From NCBI RefSeq assembly GCF_056746865.1, contig NZ_CM163382.1: 64,000 nucleotides of DNA; one strand, given 5' to 3'. Below the pieces are notes generated by a model. That model was not told the origin of the DNA. It worked only from the letters and a program-made list of their open reading frames with translations, and did no database searches. Numbering within the stretch: the first letter of the stretch is position 1; each line of letters begins with the position of its first letter. The translations under genes and the position numbers were made by a program. This document shows, one piece after another, positions 2,366-8,301 of this stretch.

Positions 2366-3695
2366 TTTTTCCGCTTTCGATAACGCCCTGCGCTCGCTGG
2401 AGTCGATCCCGCTGGCCCGCGTCGCCGGGCGGCTGGTGCGTCTGAACGGCATTCTGCTGGAGAGCGTCGGCTGCCCGCTAATGACCGGGCAACTGTGCCG
2501 CATCGAAAGCGCCAATCACACGCTGATCGACGCGCAGGCAGTGGGCTTTAATCGCGACATCACCTACTTAATGCCGTTTAAACAGCCGGTCGGCCTGATG
2601 GCAGGCGCACGCGTCTTCCCGGAAGAAAAAGCCCACGACATCCTGATTGGCGAAAGCTGGTTAGGCCGCGTGGTTAACGGTCTCGGCGAACCGCTGGATG
2701 GCAAAGGCCGCCTGAACGGTAACGACCTTCTGCCGCCGCTGCCACCCTCAGTCAATCCCTTAACCCGCCGTTCAGTGGACGAACCGCTAGACGTGGGCGT
2801 GAAAGCGATTAACGGCCTGCTGACCATCGGCAAAGGCCAGCGTGTCGGGCTGATGGCGGGCAGCGGCGTCGGGAAAAGCGTGCTGCTGGGGATGATCACC
2901 CGCCAGACCAAAGCCGACATTGTGGTGGTCGGGTTGATTGGCGAACGCGGGCGCGAAGTAAAAGAGTTTATCGACCACTCGCTGGGCGCGGACGGGCTGG
3001 CAAAGTCTATCGTCGTCGTCGCACCCGCCGATGAATCGCCGCTAATGCGACTGAAAGCCACCGAACTGTGCCACTCCATCGCCGCCTGGTTTCGCGACCG
3101 CGGGCATCACGTCTTACTGCTGGTGGATTCCCTGACCCGCTACGCGATGGCTCAGCGGGAAATTGCTCTCTCGCTCGGCGAACCACCCGCCACCAAAGGC
3201 TATCCGCCATCGGCATTCGGCATGATCCCCAAACTGGTCGAGAGCGCAGGCAACAGCGAAAGCGCGGGATCGATGACCGCTATCTACACCGTGCTGGCGG
3301 AAGGCGACGACCAGCAAGATCCGATTGTCGACTGCGCCCGTGCGGTGCTGGACGGGCATATCGTATTAACCCGCAAGCTGGCGGAAGCGGGGCATTATCC
3401 GGCCATTGATATCGGCCAGTCGATCAGCCGCTGCATGAACCAGGTGACCAGCCTGGATCATCAGCAATCTGCCCGCGCGTTAAAGCAAAACTACGCCGCC
3501 TATATGGAGATCAAACCGCTGATCCCACTCGGCGGCTACGTGGCAGGTGCCGACGCCAGCGTCGACAAAGCGGTGAAAATGTTCCCGGCTATCGAGCGAT
3601 TTTTGCGCCAGGATATGCGCGAACCCGCCGCCCTGGAACTGGTGCAAAGCCGCCTGCAAATCCTCTTTCCTGGTGTCAAAAAGGCAGAACAGTAA
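2358..3695 (+). CDS. lfiI: Flagellum-specific type III export ATPase FliI
   Basis: 445 aa with Walker A (GSGVGKS) and F1/T3SS ATPase-like motifs. Confidence 0.92.
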   Translation: MSDFSAFDNALRSLESIPLARVAGRLVRLNGILLESVGCPLMTGQLCRIESANHTLIDAQAVGFNRDITYLMPFKQPVGLMAGARVFPEEKAHDILIGESWLGRVVNGLGEPLDGKGRLNGNDLLPPLPPSVNPLTRRSVDEPLDVGVKAINGLLTIGKGQRVGLMAGSGVGKSVLLGMITRQTKADIVVVGLIGERGREVKEFIDHSLGADGLAKSIVVVAPADESPLMRLKATELCHSIAAWFRDRGHHVLLLVDSLTRYAMAQREIALSLGEPPATKGYPPSAFGMIPKLVESAGNSESAGSMTAIYTVLAEGDDQQDPIVDCARAVLDGHIVLTRKLAEAGHYPAIDIGQSISRCMNQVTSLDHQQSARALKQNYAAYMEIKPLIPLGGYVAGADASVDKAVKMFPAIERFLRQDMREPAALELVQSRLQILFPGVKKAEQ

Positions 3696-3697
3696 CT

Positions 3698-4132
3698 ATG
3701 CGACAAATCATCGACACCCTGGCGCAGTTGCAGCGCCTGCGGGATAAATCGGTCAAAGACAAAACCGTCGAGCTGGCAAAGCAAAAACAGATTTGTGCGG
3801 GCTATGACAACAATATCAAAGCATTAGGCTACCTGGTGGAGAAAACGTCTGCAGGCGCGGCGGCCTCGGTGGAATCGCTGAAAAACGTTAGCGGCTACAA
3901 AGGCACCCTGCGCAAGGTGATCGCCTGGCAGGAGCAGGAAAAAACGCTGGCCGACATCAAAGCCACGCGAATGCAGAAAAACCTGACGGCGGCGGCGTGC
4001 GAAGAGAAAGTGGTGGCCCTGACGCTGGACGACAAACGCCGCGAGCAGCAGGAAAGCGCCACCGCGAAAGCGCAGAAAGCGGTGGATGACATCGCCGTTC
4101 AGTGCTGGCTGCGGCATAAGTTAGCGGAGTAA
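3698..4132 (+). CDS. lfiJ: Flagellar export chaperone FliJ
   Basis: 144 aa, predicted coiled coil, lying immediately after fliI. Confidence 0.7.
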   Translation: MRQIIDTLAQLQRLRDKSVKDKTVELAKQKQICAGYDNNIKALGYLVEKTSAGAAASVESLKNVSGYKGTLRKVIAWQEQEKTLADIKATRMQKNLTAAACEEKVVALTLDDKRREQQESATAKAQKAVDDIAVQCWLRHKLAE

Positions 4133-4134
4133 CC

Positions 4135-4539
4135 ATGAAAACGGTCATCACCTTCGGCACCTTTGATGTGTTTCACGTCGGTCATCTGCGCCTTTTACAA
4201 CGCGCCCGCAAGCTGGGCGAGCGGCTGCTGGTCGGCGTATCGTCCGACGCCCTGAACATCGCCAAAAAGGGCAGGGCACCGGTTTACCATCAGGATGACC
4301 GCATGGCGATTATCGCCGGTCTGGCGTGCGTGGATGGCGTTTTTCTGGAGGAATCGCTGGAGCAGAAAGCGGAGTATTTGCGGGGGTACGGTGCGGATAT
4401 TTTGGTGATGGGCGATGACTGGGCGGGGAAGTTTGACGATTTCTCGTGTGTCTGTGAGGTGGTCTATTTTCCCCGTACGCCATCGGTATCGACGACGGGG
4501 ATCATTGAGGTGATTAGGGGTAAATCAGCCACCTACTGA
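4135..4539 (+). CDS. Glycerol-3-phosphate cytidylyltransferase-like protein (TagD family; predicted to make CDP-glycerol)
   Basis: 134 aa with an N-terminal GTFDVFHVGHLRLL motif, the HxGH signature of the cytidylyltransferase fold. It starts 3 nt after the lfiJ stop, so it is probably co-transcribed with the flagellar operon. Confidence 0.75.
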   Translation: MKTVITFGTFDVFHVGHLRLLQRARKLGERLLVGVSSDALNIAKKGRAPVYHQDDRMAIIAGLACVDGVFLEESLEQKAEYLRGYGADILVMGDDWAGKFDDFSCVCEVVYFPRTPSVSTTGIIEVIRGKSATY

Positions 4540-4594
4540 TTTAATTCCCGCGGTGAGAGAAGATGATGCCGTCTGCCGTTTGGCTATGTTAAAT

Positions 4595-4690
4595 ATGTTT
4601 AAAAAATCGCGTTTTTTCGACATATCCCCAAAACATGTCGATGGCATAAACGTATTCCAACGACATGTTTAAAAATCGCATTTTATCGAC
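4595..4690. repeat. Direct ~32-bp repeats and CGACAT/ATGTCG inverted repeats in a convergent intergenic region
   Basis: GTTTAAAAAATCGCGTTTTTTCGACATATCCC at about 4597 and GTTTAAAAATCGCATTTTATCGACATATCCC at about 4658, with AACATGTCG...CGACATGTT between them. Confidence 0.6.
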
Positions 4691-7154
4691 ATATCCCTGA
4701 CGATTCCTTGCCCGCCAGCGCCTCCACAATCACCATCGCCGCCCGTTCTCCCGCCTTGCCATCCATAAACGCATCGCAATAGTGATGACGAATCTCCTTA
4801 AGCCGCGCCAGCAACGCACCCCAGTCAAACGCCTCTGACAACAAATAACGCAGTTCCGCAACATCATGAGCCACCGGCAATATTTCGCGGATTTGCTGGT
4901 CGGCGCTTTCGGGCGTGGAGTAACTTTTCTCACCGTCGAGCAACGCTGCCATTTCCGGAAAGTCGAGCAGGATTACCCGCTTATCAACGTGGATAGCATC
5001 GAAAATAAAGCCGCTGTTATCGGTCAGCACGTAATCGGCCTTTGCCAGTAGCGCCAGCGTGTGGTGGACGGAGTCGGTGCGCTGTTTTAAGTGCCTGCGC
5101 GCCAGGGCCAGCGATGCAGCTTCTTCCGGGCGCGAGCAGGTGCCGTGGTGCAGTTTGCAAATCAGATTCACATTGCCACTTAAGCGCCCCAATTTTTCTG
5201 CCCAGTGGGGCAGGGAGCTTAATGCGCCAAACGTGGGGGCGTAGAGCACCGTAGGTTTACGGGAATCGGGTTGAATATTTTCTGGCAGAATGCGGTCAAA
5301 CGTGCCGTTATGCCAGGCGTCGAAGCGCGGGTTGCCGACTGCTTTTGCATTGCCGAAATGCGCCAGCGCCCGCTGGCTGTAGTGGCTGTAACACAAAATG
5401 CGTTGATAAAAACGGTTCCAGTCGGCGTGGTTCCACGTCTCTTTGGCTAAGCCATACATGGCGCGAACGTTCACCGCTGCCAGGCCATTGAGCGCGGGCG
5501 TGTGGTAGGGGCTGACCAGGCATTTCACCCGCTGACCGTGTGCCTGCATTTCAGATAAGCGCATTCCTTTGAGCTGCGGATCGTCGATGCTTTTTAGCGT
5601 CTCCAGCATTTCATCCAGAAACGGTTTAAACACGCGGTCGTTGATCACCAGCGTGCAGCCTTGCCCCTGCGCCTGTAGGGCGGTGATGATTGGGCGGTAG
5701 AGCGCGTAATGGAAAGAAGTTTCCATAAAAAAGCCGATGGTGTCGGCGATGGGTAACGCGGATGGCTTTGTGATAGCAGGTAACTTATTGAAATAGTGAG
5801 CAATATTATCAGTCATTTTTTTCTCGATATCGCTAAAGCCTGGTCGCTGATAACTAAGGCTCGGGTAACAGGCCAGCCATTTGTCGGCGCGTAGCAGCGG
5901 CTGCCAGCCGTCTTCCAGCGAATGCTCATCGTTGCTCATCTGCTGCGCCAGTTGCGGGTAGTAGCGGCGGTTCACCAGATAAGCGCATACCTTGCGGCAG
6001 TCCCGCGCGTGCACCAGCCCCGGCAAACTTTTTAGCATCGTTCCCTGCGAAATTTCGCCGCCGAGGATCATCACCTGCCAGGGAATTTTCGCCAGGCTCG
6101 CCAGCAGCGTGTTCAGCACCTGAATATGTTTCTCCTGCTTGAGAATAACCGCGTCATCTTCCAGCAGCAGATAGTTTTGCCAGCCGTGCTGTTGCGCCAG
6201 GCGCAGCGCCTGCAAGTGCGACTGACGTCGTCCCCGTTGGCCGTTTTGATCTTCACTGGCGGCAAGGCGGGTGATCTTCTCAGGTGGAATATGCAGCAAT
6301 GCCAGTTCTTCACGGATCTGTTGTAAGCGATCCGGGCGTTTATCCAGATTCACAACAACTACCTGATCGATCGTCTGATGGTTGATCCCTTGGTGATGAG
6401 TGGCGTTATGTAGACTCAGATAAGCATTGCGCAGCAGCGGATCGCTGACGATATCTGTAAGCGCCGCGTTTACAGGCGTGCTGGCCCCGAGAATAAAGTC
6501 TTTATCAAAGGTGTTGTGGCTGTGCGAGATACACAGAATCGTGCGCTCGCCGGGCAGTTGTAGCGGGTTAACGCTGAAATTGTCGGTGAAACTTTTCTCT
6601 TCGCCTAAATTGCAATCATCGTCGTAACGGTGCTTTTTCAGGTAGTTACGGTGATAGCAAAAGGTGCCGTTGAGGATGTTATGTGGGCCAAAGCTGCGGC
6701 TTTGAAAGATGCGATTGATGTGGCTGTACCAGATGGGGATCTGGTCGGAGCCGGAGATGAGCGCCCGGTGTTTTTGCATCTTGGCGATGGTCCAGGAGAT
6801 TTTATCTGCCGGGTAGTAGTCGTCATCGTCCATGCAGAGGATGTATTCGCCGCGCGCCAGTTCGTTGAGCATATTGCGTTTTTTGCCCAGCGGCAGTTTT
6901 TCCGGGTGATGAATATAGCGGATGTTAAAGGCTTCCGGCGTGCCATTGGTCAGGCGGTCGATGATGTGTTGATGGCTTTGCGGGGAATCGTCGAGGATGA
7001 TGAGTTCGCGGCGGTCTGCCGGGTAGTCCTGATAGCGGTACATATAAAGCAGGTACGGCAGGAATGCGCTGCGGTTCCAGGTTGGCGTGACGACGCTGAT
7101 GAACGGTTTTTCGCGCTGGGTGGCGAGTGTTTTGATAATGGTTGGTGTTGGCAT
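4683..7154 (-). CDS. Multidomain glycosyltransferase: N-terminal GT2-like, central GT25-like, C-terminal CDP-glycerol glycerophosphotransferase (TagB/TagF)-like
   Basis: The ORF track gives 4683..7226, but its first 24 codons translate the repeat element, so the ATG at 7154 (MPTPTIIK) is the probable start. GT2-like motifs: VVTPTWNRS and LCMDDDDYY (DxD). GT25-like segment: VVVNLDKRPDRL...LLEDDAVI. TagF-like C-terminus: ADYVLTDNSGFIFDAIHVDKRVILLD. Confidence 0.8.
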   Translation of the reverse strand: MPTPTIIKTLATQREKPFISVVTPTWNRSAFLPYLLYMYRYQDYPADRRELIILDDSPQSHQHIIDRLTNGTPEAFNIRYIHHPEKLPLGKKRNMLNELARGEYILCMDDDDYYPADKISWTIAKMQKHRALISGSDQIPIWYSHINRIFQSRSFGPHNILNGTFCYHRNYLKKHRYDDDCNLGEEKSFTDNFSVNPLQLPGERTILCISHSHNTFDKDFILGASTPVNAALTDIVSDPLLRNAYLSLHNATHHQGINHQTIDQVVVVNLDKRPDRLQQIREELALLHIPPEKITRLAASEDQNGQRGRRQSHLQALRLAQQHGWQNYLLLEDDAVILKQEKHIQVLNTLLASLAKIPWQVMILGGEISQGTMLKSLPGLVHARDCRKVCAYLVNRRYYPQLAQQMSNDEHSLEDGWQPLLRADKWLACYPSLSYQRPGFSDIEKKMTDNIAHYFNKLPAITKPSALPIADTIGFFMETSFHYALYRPIITALQAQGQGCTLVINDRVFKPFLDEMLETLKSIDDPQLKGMRLSEMQAHGQRVKCLVSPYHTPALNGLAAVNVRAMYGLAKETWNHADWNRFYQRILCYSHYSQRALAHFGNAKAVGNPRFDAWHNGTFDRILPENIQPDSRKPTVLYAPTFGALSSLPHWAEKLGRLSGNVNLICKLHHGTCSRPEEAASLALARRHLKQRTDSVHHTLALLAKADYVLTDNSGFIFDAIHVDKRVILLDFPEMAALLDGEKSYSTPESADQQIREILPVAHDVAELRYLLSEAFDWGALLARLKEIRHHYCDAFMDGKAGERAAMVIVEALAGKESSGICR

Positions 7155-7198
7155 GGTGTTTGGGTGAGTTAATGGGTGAATGTGATGAATGTGCGTGC

Positions 7199-7313
7199 TG
7201 ATGCCCTCACCCCGACCCTCTCCCACAGGGAGAGGGAGAAAACCAGCGCTGATTTTAACACCGTGCTCGATCGGTTCCCTCGCCCCTTTGGGGAGAGGGG
7301 TAGGGGGAGGGGA
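7199..7313. repeat. G/C-rich nested-palindrome repeat element, copy 1
   Basis: CCCTCACCCCGACCCTCTCCCACAGGGAGAGGG ... CCCCTTTGGGGAGAGGGGTAGGGGGAGGGG, with the same architecture and flanks (GTGCGnnCTGATG) as the copy at 14561..14685. Confidence 0.7.
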
Positions 7314-7332: not shown

Positions 7333-8301
7333 TCACGTCAGCAGCGAAAACGCTGAAAGCAGCGGCTCTGCCGCACATAACGACTGAATTTGCTGGCGAA
7401 TCGACGCAGCATTTTCACTCTCTCGCCAGCGTTCAAACACCGCAAAAAGGGCGAAAATATCCTCCTGTCGCAGCGGTGAACCATCCAGCGTCCATAAACT
7501 GATTAACGTGCGGATAAGATAAAAATCGCACACCAGCGGGCAATAATCTGCTCCGTCTGCCTGCCCAATCACCTCATGGTAAACGCGGTAAATCAGCCAG
7601 TTACGCATCATCCAGGGCGCGGTAGCAAAATGCTGTTGCCAGGTGGTTTGCCACTGTGCCTGAAGCTGATGTTGTAACAGGGCTTCGCTGTTGGCGTCAT
7701 GTAGCGCCAGCAAAGGCATCTGCAACGGCAGCGAAGTTTTGCGCGGGCTTTCCGGCAAAATCGACCAGTCAAACGCACAACTGCCGAGCAGCGTCATCAA
7801 CTGGCGCGCCAGTTGTGGCACGGGCGGCAACTGGGCGAACTGTGCCTGTAGCGTGCCTTTTTTCGCATGATCGGCCAGCGCCTGCGGCAGCGTCGTCAAA
7901 CGGGCAAGAATATCTCCGTCTCTGCCCGGCATTTTACTGGCGCGGGAGAGTAAAATCCCGATGGCATACAGGGAAAGCTCTGGGGTTAAATCGGGGAGCG
8001 TGAGGGTACTCAAAATCACCTGGTTTACTATCGCATCGCGCGCGGAAAGCTCTGCGGCATTTTCTTCCACAGGACGGTAGGTGAGCTGTAAATCAAAGGC
8101 CCTGGCATCGTTGAGTACCGCTTCGCAGCTGGCTGGCTCTGTCAGCATCAGGCTCTGGCGAATCTCGTTTTTCCACACCTTGCGGATGTACAAAGGCGAA
8201 TCGGGATATTGCGTCATAAAATTGCGCACGTATTCCGGTTCGTAACATTCAATAAAACTCATAGGTGGCTTCCAGTCTTTATTACTTTGCGGAATATGCA
8301 A
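7333..8301 (-). CDS. Hypothetical protein (322 aa) at the end of the lfgA-lfgM-lfgN gene string
   Basis: Long ORF co-oriented with lfgN and ending just upstream of the glycosyltransferase gene. I recognise no motif. Confidence 0.5.
   Translation of the reverse strand: MHIPQSNKDWKPPMSFIECYEPEYVRNFMTQYPDSPLYIRKVWKNEIRQSLMLTEPASCEAVLNDARAFDLQLTYRPVEENAAELSARDAIVNQVILSTLTLPDLTPELSLYAIGILLSRASKMPGRDGDILARLTTLPQALADHAKKGTLQAQFAQLPPVPQLARQLMTLLGSCAFDWSILPESPRKTSLPLQMPLLALHDANSEALLQHQLQAQWQTTWQQHFATAPWMMRNWLIYRVYHEVIGQADGADYCPLVCDFYLIRTLISLWTLDGSPLRQEDIFALFAVFERWRESENAASIRQQIQSLCAAEPLLSAFSLLT

Follow-up and report, generated by a model that had tools for sequence, protein, structure and literature searches.

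Repeats between convergent genes of the Escherichia coli flag-2 locus as the probable deletion scar of a SoFic-type fic gene and its upstream array

Fic enzymes whose C-terminal domain is a winged helix–turn–helix (wHTH) can act on their own promoters. CccR of Yersinia pseudotuberculosis represses itself by way of a 10-bp inverted repeat, mapped by footprinting, that lies close to the −35 and −10 boxes (PMC9755527). SoFic of Shewanella oneidensis (mloA, SO_4266) binds its own 300-bp promoter DNA in vitro as a dimer and not as a monomer, binds best to the 100 bp by the start codon, and leaves a random fragment of matched composition unbound; its AMPylation activity likewise depends on dimerization (10.64898/2026.07.09.737422). 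SoFic is toxic and acts in abortive infection (PMC12249575), which offers a reason for tight autorepression. Autoregulatory Fic-wHTH operators, as in CccR, and binding of SoFic to its own promoter are, therefore, already known; the binding study (10.64898/2026.07.09.737422) places the site to a 100-bp fragment only and mentions no motif or repeat. We analyzed a 64,000-nucleotide stretch of contig NZ_CM163382.1 (assembly GCF_056746865.1), hereafter the window, which is an E. coli flag-2 (secondary flagella) locus and is 100% identical to many E. coli chromosomes. Between a tagD-like cytidylyltransferase gene and a convergent glycosyltransferase gene, it holds a 107-bp array of repeats. With a probability of about 0.85, we read this array as the orphaned distal part (unit 2 and a terminal half-unit) of the autoregulatory upstream region of a deleted SoFic-type fic gene.

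The intact counterpart stands at exactly this site in other genomes. The order tagD, fic, a 2.5-unit array, and the glycosyltransferase gene is found in E. coli 4FM (L067), Escherichia sp. E1V33 (L049), Pseudocitrobacter faecalis (L022), and a Pseudocitrobacter metagenome-assembled genome (L023), and nine complete E. coli genomes, 4FM among them, carry fic and a 2.5-unit array at the flag-2 site. Alignment with L067 shows what the window has kept. Window 4300–4551 is 92.5% identical to L067 1710–1961, a segment comprising tagD and, on the opposite strand, the stop codon and last six codons of fic, whose coding sequence (CDS) ends at L067 1943; the same overlap of fic and tagD 3′ ends is present in L022. 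Window 4554–4590 is 97.3% identical over 37 nt to a stretch inside fic (L067 2038–2074; blastn) and 88.9% identical to L022 6014–6049, and fic residues 316–327 align to window 4590–4555 in tblastn. Window 4592–4706 then matches array unit 2 and the terminal half-unit of L067 (3087–3202) at 87% identity, and window 4592–4898 matches L022 7061–7368, again at 87%. Missing relative to L067 are 76 bp and 1,012 bp (∼1.09 kb in total), the larger gap having ATGTT motifs at both ends.

Because internal fic fragments lie in the window, the change must have been a deletion; an insertion, its reverse, would not account for them. The deletion junctions are identical in five divergent E. coli remnant alleles, which, therefore, go back to a single deletion event. 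No SoFic is encoded in the 64-kb window, and genomes identical to the window over 3600–5600 hold the array in one place, with no second copy. From this absence of other arrays, we infer that the genome of this strain has no cognate SoFic. The coordinates of the array, the fic fragments, and the flanking genes are collected in Table 1.

Table 1. Features of the flag-2 array site, in window coordinates
Feature	Position	Strand	Basis or remark
tagD-like glycerol-3-phosphate cytidylyltransferase gene, 134 aa	4135..4539	+	Left neighbor of the array in flag-2 variable region VR1; RefSeq annotation
SoFic remnant a: fic 3′ end (RELNQ*; last 6 codons and stop), which overlaps that of tagD	4533..4551	-	Alignment to L067
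SoFic remnant b: 37 nt, fic codons 316–327	4554..4590	-	NIAKRQTASSSL versus NIAKRQTASSYL
One complete unit of the 70-bp repeat, corresponding to unit 2 where the array is intact (2.5 units)	4593..4662	+	Holds direct-repeat copy 1 (4597–4629)
SoFic-box palindrome TTCGACATAT-CCCCAAA-ACATGTCGAT, the only complete one left	4616..4642	.	Family consensus ATCGACAyrT-N7-AyrTGTCGAT
Inverted repeat of the initial annotation	4631..4670	.	Combines the ATGTCGAT box with the beginning of the following unit
Terminal half-unit	4663..4699	+	Direct-repeat copy 2 (4666–4698) and lone ATCGACAT box (4685–4692); nhmmer profile positions 2–38
GT2 glycosyltransferase gene	4683..7226	-	Pfam Glycos_transf_2, 4.2e-18; RefSeq start at window 7154

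The initial annotation had described two direct repeats of ∼32 bp flanking an inverted repeat, in an interval that ended at 4690. The direct repeats are real: 4599–4628 and 4668–4697 agree at 27 of 30 positions with a spacing of 69 bp, they can be extended by eye to ∼33 bp each, and in none of 100 shuffles of the window did the 30-mer occur twice with at most three mismatches. They are, however, successive units of a 70-bp tandem repeat rather than an isolated pair, and an end at 4690 cuts the second one; the array spans 4593–4699, or 1.5 units. The spacing of 69 rather than 70 bp comes from one A missing in the A-run of the second copy. As had been stated, the second repeat overlaps the 3′ end of the glycosyltransferase gene, whose stop codon (4683–4685) and last five codons lie inside the terminal half-unit. 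The arms of the inverted repeat (4631–4648 and 4653–4670) are complementary at 16 of 18 positions around a 4-nt loop, include AACATGTCG-N20-CGACATGTT, and fold as a hairpin on both strands. The motif CGACATRT occurs at five sites in 64 kb (4.2 expected by chance), four of which fall within the 77 bp of 4618–4694, and the stretch between the two genes is 35% GC. A profile search (nhmmer) matched the full unit at 4595–4661, with a profile whose seed included this copy; Tandem Repeats Finder did not report the window array because 1.5 units are too short.

A sensitive search with 361 bp around the site connected the array to SoFic genes elsewhere. Window 4593–4699 is 77% identical to several E. 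coli places annotated as "fic" (E = 7e-10). On leuX-type islands, which carry an integrase, a MobH relaxase, and ArdC, the matching sequence repeats in tandem every 70 bp (7.4 copies by Tandem Repeats Finder, 8.5 units by profile search), and the array has its edge exactly at the start codon of a fic gene for 358 aa; in other E. coli islands, as on Cedecea and Pantoea plasmids, fic is preceded by a shorter array of 2.5 units. The array-linked fic product is SoFic by the NF046030 equivalog model (597 bits), by its Fic_N, Fic, and SoFic-like_C winged-helix domains, and by the PADLOC SoFic defense model (3.7e-121). SoFic belongs to the Fic AMP-transferases, carries a winged-helix DNA-binding domain, and figures among the listed antiphage defense genes. 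A DNA-pattern scan of one genome per bacterial species gave 55 loci in other species, with multiple matches exactly 70 bp apart. They are mostly in Gammaproteobacteria (genera include Photorhabdus, Citrobacter, Pantoea, Erwinia, Salmonella, Edwardsiella, Mangrovibacter, and Shewanella; also Moraxellaceae), and a SoFic homolog of 50–99% identity begins at the array edge in about 35 of the 55.

Arrays of this family always close with a half-unit, so that their lengths are n + 0.5 units, from 1.5 to 10.5. The unit consensus, drawn from 80 distinct units at about 45 loci, is nnAtATGTTTAAAAAAncnnnTTTTATCGACATATngccanAAcaTGTCGATgccaTAAACATgTcncggcn. The window copy matches it with a head-to-tail period of ∼70 bp and a terminal half-unit, and it keeps all strongly conserved blocks except for one A-to-T change in the first box that is present in 5 of the 80 units. 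Its identity is 86–87% to the arrays of L049, L023, L067, and L022. It abuts no fic start codon, the window holding two fic fragments and no fic ORF, and the fic-proximal unit with its promoter (GTGACA-17-TAT(T/G)AT) has been deleted. The window copy is, therefore, a remnant of a family member and not a complete member. Import of the fragment from a leuX-island array was considered and rejected, such arrays being 77% identical versus 86–87% for the syntenic arrays at the flag-2 site.

The element conserved throughout the family is the palindrome ATCGACAyrT-N7-AyrTGTCGAT. Each of its seven core pairs is kept in 78–80 of the 80 units, whereas the spacer is variable and noncomplementary. Invariant half-sites around a variable spacer are the signature of a site for a dimeric protein and not of an RNA or DNA hairpin. 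The window retains one such palindrome of the CccR/SoFic operator type, TTCGACATAT-N7-ACATGTCGAT, the only occurrence of the complete pattern in 64 kb by regular-expression search. The conserved palindrome is not the N20 inverted repeat that the initial annotation had emphasized: pairing in the latter amounts to just 56% across the 80 units, and the apparent stem within the A half-unit holds conserved mismatches (T·C in 77 of 80, A·A in 60 of 79). In the fic-proximal unit, the fic strand bears a σ70-like promoter, GTGACA-17-TAT(T/G)AT (10/12), found at the same register in 16 of 19 such units and absent from distal units including that of the window, where the best promoter-like match is 8/12 and in another register. 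The −10 hexamer of the fic promoter sits between the two half-sites of the palindrome.

The S. oneidensis DNA that SoFic has been found to bind contains the same elements. The promoter sequences (Table S2 of the binding study) have an A half-unit adjoining the start codon (CATGTTTAAAAAAAccttcTTTTATCGACATA; nhmmer E = 1.3e-5) along with ATCGACAT/ATGTCGAT boxes. Counted by hand, the boxes number three plus the A half-unit in fragment F1, two in F2, and none in F3 or in the random control, an order that follows the reported order of binding. This promoter differs from the enterobacterial ones in that there is no regular 70-bp tandem array and the boxes are separated by N20 and N3 instead of N11; it differs from the window in that the gene and its promoter have been kept. 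CccR offers a second comparison. Like SoFic, it is a dimeric Fic enzyme with a C-terminal (w)HTH and a palindrome close to its own −35 and −10 boxes, the SoFic palindrome bracketing the −10. However, CccR is about 29% identical to SoFic and has a single site, AGATAATCAT-N26-ATGATAATCT, whereas the SoFic palindrome recurs every 70 bp, up to 10.5 times.

As an independent check, we examined SoFic homologs on plasmids chosen by protein similarity alone. In the Salmonella plasmid homologs (77 and 74% identity), the ATG directly adjoins the A half-unit, with boxes upstream. For the homologs of Mesorhizobium (57%) and the Agrobacterium vitis pTi (55%), the final 110 bp hold five or six boxes, among them ATCGACAT-N11-(A/G)TGTCGAT. 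The boxes are, thus, conserved from Agrobacterium to Enterobacterales (Alpha- to Gammaproteobacteria), and no boxes were found upstream of the plasmid homologs examined that had less than 48% identity. At the Mesorhizobium and A. vitis loci (L070 and L071, about 790–903), the fic start codon itself lies within a box, ATCGACATG, and the upstream region lacks the AT-rich TTTAAAAAA segment that the enterobacterial unit has. On an Azotobacter salinestris plasmid (L073, about 650–870; 46%-identical homolog), several copies of another palindrome, ATGCATAGG/CCTATGCAT, replace the ATCGACAT boxes, a pattern which suggests from sequence that operator specificity covaries with the wHTH domain.

By analogy with CccR, a SoFic dimer at intact loci would contact the boxes through its C-terminal winged-helix domains and repress transcription of its own toxic gene, and the upstream units of the array would repeat the palindrome without a promoter. 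At the flag-2 site, the two deletions removed fic codons 1–315 together with the promoter-bearing unit. The 107 bp left behind, in a cell that probably lacks the cognate protein, most likely does nothing specific; incidentally, it supplies the last glycosyltransferase codons and stop codon as well as an AT-rich hairpin between the convergent genes. With one complete palindrome, one lone box, and neither promoter nor gene, the window array most likely has no present role beyond that stop codon.

Several observations weigh against this account. The flanks of the fic-bearing loci are just 87–92% identical to the window, and neither fic-bearing locus is its direct ancestor; for this reason, the sequence of events is a reconstruction and not an observation. 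None of the boxes is damaged in the five remnant alleles compared, which, together with a stem that is better paired than its L067 counterpart (16/18 versus 13/18, the latter counted by hand), would also fit a retained or acquired role; at about 2–3%, the divergence among the remnants is too low to discriminate such a role from inertness. Arrays of 1.5 units with clean edges and no fic occur in other genera, and, given these orphan copies, arrays may have some life of their own. Finally, SoFic contacts are known to 100-bp resolution and in S. oneidensis only, where binding rather than repression was measured and where the box spacing departs from the enterobacterial one.

The fic-less arrays (L013 4723–4843, L037 2567–2674, L045 10551–10658, L060 5191–5292, and L061 29–136) belong to Citrobacter youngae, Salmonella arizonae and diarizonae, Atlantibacter, and a Citrobacter sp. 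All lie downstream of the same island genes, coding for proteins of 494, 192 (DUF2857), and 383 aa, and the C. youngae array adjoins hipBA. Their first unit is without the GTGACA-17-TATTAT promoter, and Pfam scans of the adjacent genes showed no common function (DUF2857 island genes, HipBA, EamA, GNAT). These copies may stem from fic loss in parallel or from spread on their own. At the other extreme, the array has expanded to 10.5 units in Citrobacter sp. 18056 (L050 1428–2159) and to 8.5 units on an E. coli leuX island (L005 1503–2094), in part as 140-bp double units (95% matches). Both of these loci have an XRE/HipB-like HTH gene upstream of the array on the fic strand. Islands that are nearly the same in other respects can differ in unit number (8.5 in L005, 6.5 in L009).

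One reading would give the arrays themselves a function: as a DNA platform, they might set the oligomeric and enzymatic state of SoFic, parking the toxin harmlessly until it is set free by phage infection. Orphan arrays, such as that of the window or those on the islands of Salmonella, Citrobacter, and Atlantibacter, could in that case be retained as decoys for, or as sites that titrate, a SoFic acquired on mobile islands. The related Coxiella CbFic2, in which DNA binding switches AMPylation to deAMPylation, is a precedent, and AMPylation by SoFic, too, requires dimerization; the idea seems to us rather improbable. A separate element, the antitoxin AS1, has been reported downstream of EcSofic (PMC12249575); it cannot be present in the flag-2 cassette as arranged because the 3′ end of fic overlaps that of tagD.

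The remnant might have been co-opted as a 3′-end element for the two convergent genes, acting as a bidirectional hairpin terminator or an mRNA stabilizer, which would be compatible with its being a relic. Two hairpins fold on both strands (RNA z-scores of −2.3 and −1.7, single-stranded DNA z-score of −4.6), the central hairpin on the minus strand lies 13 nt past the glycosyltransferase stop codon and is followed by UUUU, and the window stem is the better paired one. Moreover, other alleles have a repetitive extragenic palindromic (REP) element in the equivalent slot, and a role in termination or mRNA stabilization at 3′ ends is usually ascribed to REP elements. However, a terminator consensus scan of 4000–5200 returned no terminator-like site; at 4540–4700, the stems are rich in A and T and are followed by at most four U on the minus strand and by no U-tract on the plus strand. 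The fold z-scores are accounted for by the operator palindromes, and family-wide the hairpin lacks conservation. At least one strain, A65EC, is without REP and array alike and, therefore, nothing is required at the slot. With no terminator in the consensus scan and one allele empty, we hold co-option to be unlikely. The impression in the initial annotation that the hexamer half-sites look more like a protein-binding array than a simple terminator was, thus, sound, given the lack of a terminator-like site, a palindrome of the dimer type, and the presence of the boxes in SoFic-bound promoter DNA; it went astray on which palindrome matters and on what the array serves, which is not the regulation of flagellar glycosylation genes.

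Such regulation, by a flagellar regulator or by a SoFic encoded elsewhere, would fit the intact palindrome and extra box, invariant in the five remnant alleles, and the presence of SoFic on leuX-type islands in some E. coli, where binding in trans is conceivable. Set against this, the array lies at the 3′ ends of both genes and not at a promoter, derives from a foreign cassette, and is absent from most flag-2 loci, and genomes with the remnant allele show no other array. No convincing match to the flagellar promoter or operator consensus checked by eye (σ28) was seen on either strand. We regard a regulatory role at flag-2 as very unlikely. It is hardly credible that the repeats act as RNA, in the manner of a ToxI-like type III antitoxin array, or inserted themselves as a miniature inverted-repeat transposable element (MITE). 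Tandem direct repeats just upstream of a toxin gene do recall toxIN, cptIN, and tenpIN, the units are self-complementary, and fic-less 1.5-unit copies are found in several genera. However, there is no covariation, the stems hold conserved mismatches, and conservation is at the level of sequence. Permissive Rfam searches with the window site and an intact array gave no match bar a chance one to mir-43 (E = 0.5). SoFic binds such DNA at the S. oneidensis promoter, and, in place of target-site duplications, fic fragments border the window copy. The array is single copy in its genome and rare in viral contigs, where the scan found six loci, four of them with weak single-unit matches to the repeat profile and none next to fic.

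Established classes of repeats were rejected on similar grounds. A type III toxin–antitoxin RNA array was rejected on account of the conserved stem mismatches, the downstream promoter, and the lack of an Rfam match. Like the SoFic arrays, ToxI-type arrays are tandem direct repeats directly upstream of a toxin or abortive-infection gene, but the SoFic repeats show no evidence of RNA structure and match a protein-bound DNA site, and the SoFic toxin is an AMP-transferase and not an endoribonuclease. The sole promoter lies in the fic-proximal unit, downstream of the other units, and these would, therefore, not be cotranscribed from it. A clustered regularly interspaced short palindromic repeat (CRISPR) array was rejected because the segments between repeats are conserved between units and species, and a MITE or other small mobile element was rejected because the array occurs once and its left flank is fic derived, not a duplicated target. 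Plasmid iteron- or centromere-like arrays such as sopC of F (43-bp units with an internal inverted repeat) resemble the SoFic arrays in their tandem units, in an inverted repeat for a dimeric protein, and in a unit number that varies between strains; unlike these, the SoFic arrays have no replication or partition gene beside them and abut the fic start codon.

REP elements and the bacterial interspersed mosaic elements (BIMEs) of E. coli invite comparison, being short, structured, repeated intergenic sequences that fill the equivalent slot in the majority flag-2 allele. REP is GC-rich (GCCGGATGCGGCG...) with hundreds of copies per genome, whereas the window element is 35% GC, single copy, and tied to one gene family; the REP consensus palindrome is absent from the window. 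The survey took in 5,426 complete E. coli genomes, of which 1,516 matched the site at all. The remnant array is present in about 107 (at least 80% coverage of the 361-bp query) and the intact fic cassette in 9. Most other flag-2 loci sampled, with flanking genes about 92% identical, have a palindrome, GCCGGATGCGGCGTAAACGCCTTATCCGGCCTAC, that we take to be REP. The slot (L002 350–560, L004 350–570, and L003 350–480, equivalent to window 4540–4712), thus, comes in four forms: an empty one, one with REP, one with the fic cassette, and one with the fic scar. The initial annotation had proposed looking for the array in homologous loci and had named absence of the repeats from otherwise identical loci as evidence against it; such conservation was not borne out, most homologous loci being without the repeats, so that the annotation fails by its own standard. 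In L049, a 300-bp partial duplicate of tagD (2489–2783; 89% identical to window 4221–4520) separates the array from the glycosyltransferase gene. Direct tagD repeats, therefore, bound the fic cassette, an arrangement that single-crossover (Campbell-type) integration of a circular intermediate would be expected to leave. L049 also has a REP element by the tagD duplicate, and many E. coli genomes match positions 2045–2131 of the L049 query.

The array site belongs to VR1, the lfiJ–lfgN interval, and homologs of fliE to fliJ of the second flagellar system lie upstream. VR1 has been described as a hotspot where cargo for flagellin glycosylation, TagD and GT2 enzymes included, is acquired horizontally (PMC6993521). 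Pfam and NCBIfam agree on the identities of the tagD and glycosyltransferase genes, the tagD product matching CTP_transf_like (Pfam, 2e-20) and, below its cutoff, TIGR01518 (1.6e-33). The glycosyltransferase CDS is 2472 bp with the remnant allele versus 2445 bp in REP-type alleles. The protein is, thus, 9 aa longer than that of the majority allele, with the C-terminal extension read out of the half-unit, and the window shares this array/glycosyltransferase junction with L022. Beside the glycosyltransferase gene, a 322-aa "hypothetical protein" (7333–8301, minus strand) has a subthreshold match to the FliB flagellin lysine-N-methylase (NF038110, 3e-11; 43 bits versus a cutoff of 85), which is consistent with VR1 as a flagellin-modification region. 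The only promoter-like site on the minus strand near the array, TTAACA-18-CATCAT (9/12; 4592–4563), spans the deletion junction, points antisense into tagD, and is probably due to chance.

Read as a deletion scar, this odd cluster of repeats no longer calls for a regulator of flagellin glycosylation at the site. It also indicates that flag-2 VR1 has gained, and then lost, an antiphage defense gene. In the literature searched, we found neither the box sequence, its placement around the −10 hexamer, and its Alpha- to Gammaproteobacteria conservation nor the regular 70-bp tandem arrays of variable length and their orphan copies. For SoFic-type Fic toxins more widely, the comparison of sequences provides a concrete candidate operator, ATCGACAyrT-N7-AyrTGTCGAT, which brackets the −10 hexamer and is repeated every 70 bp.

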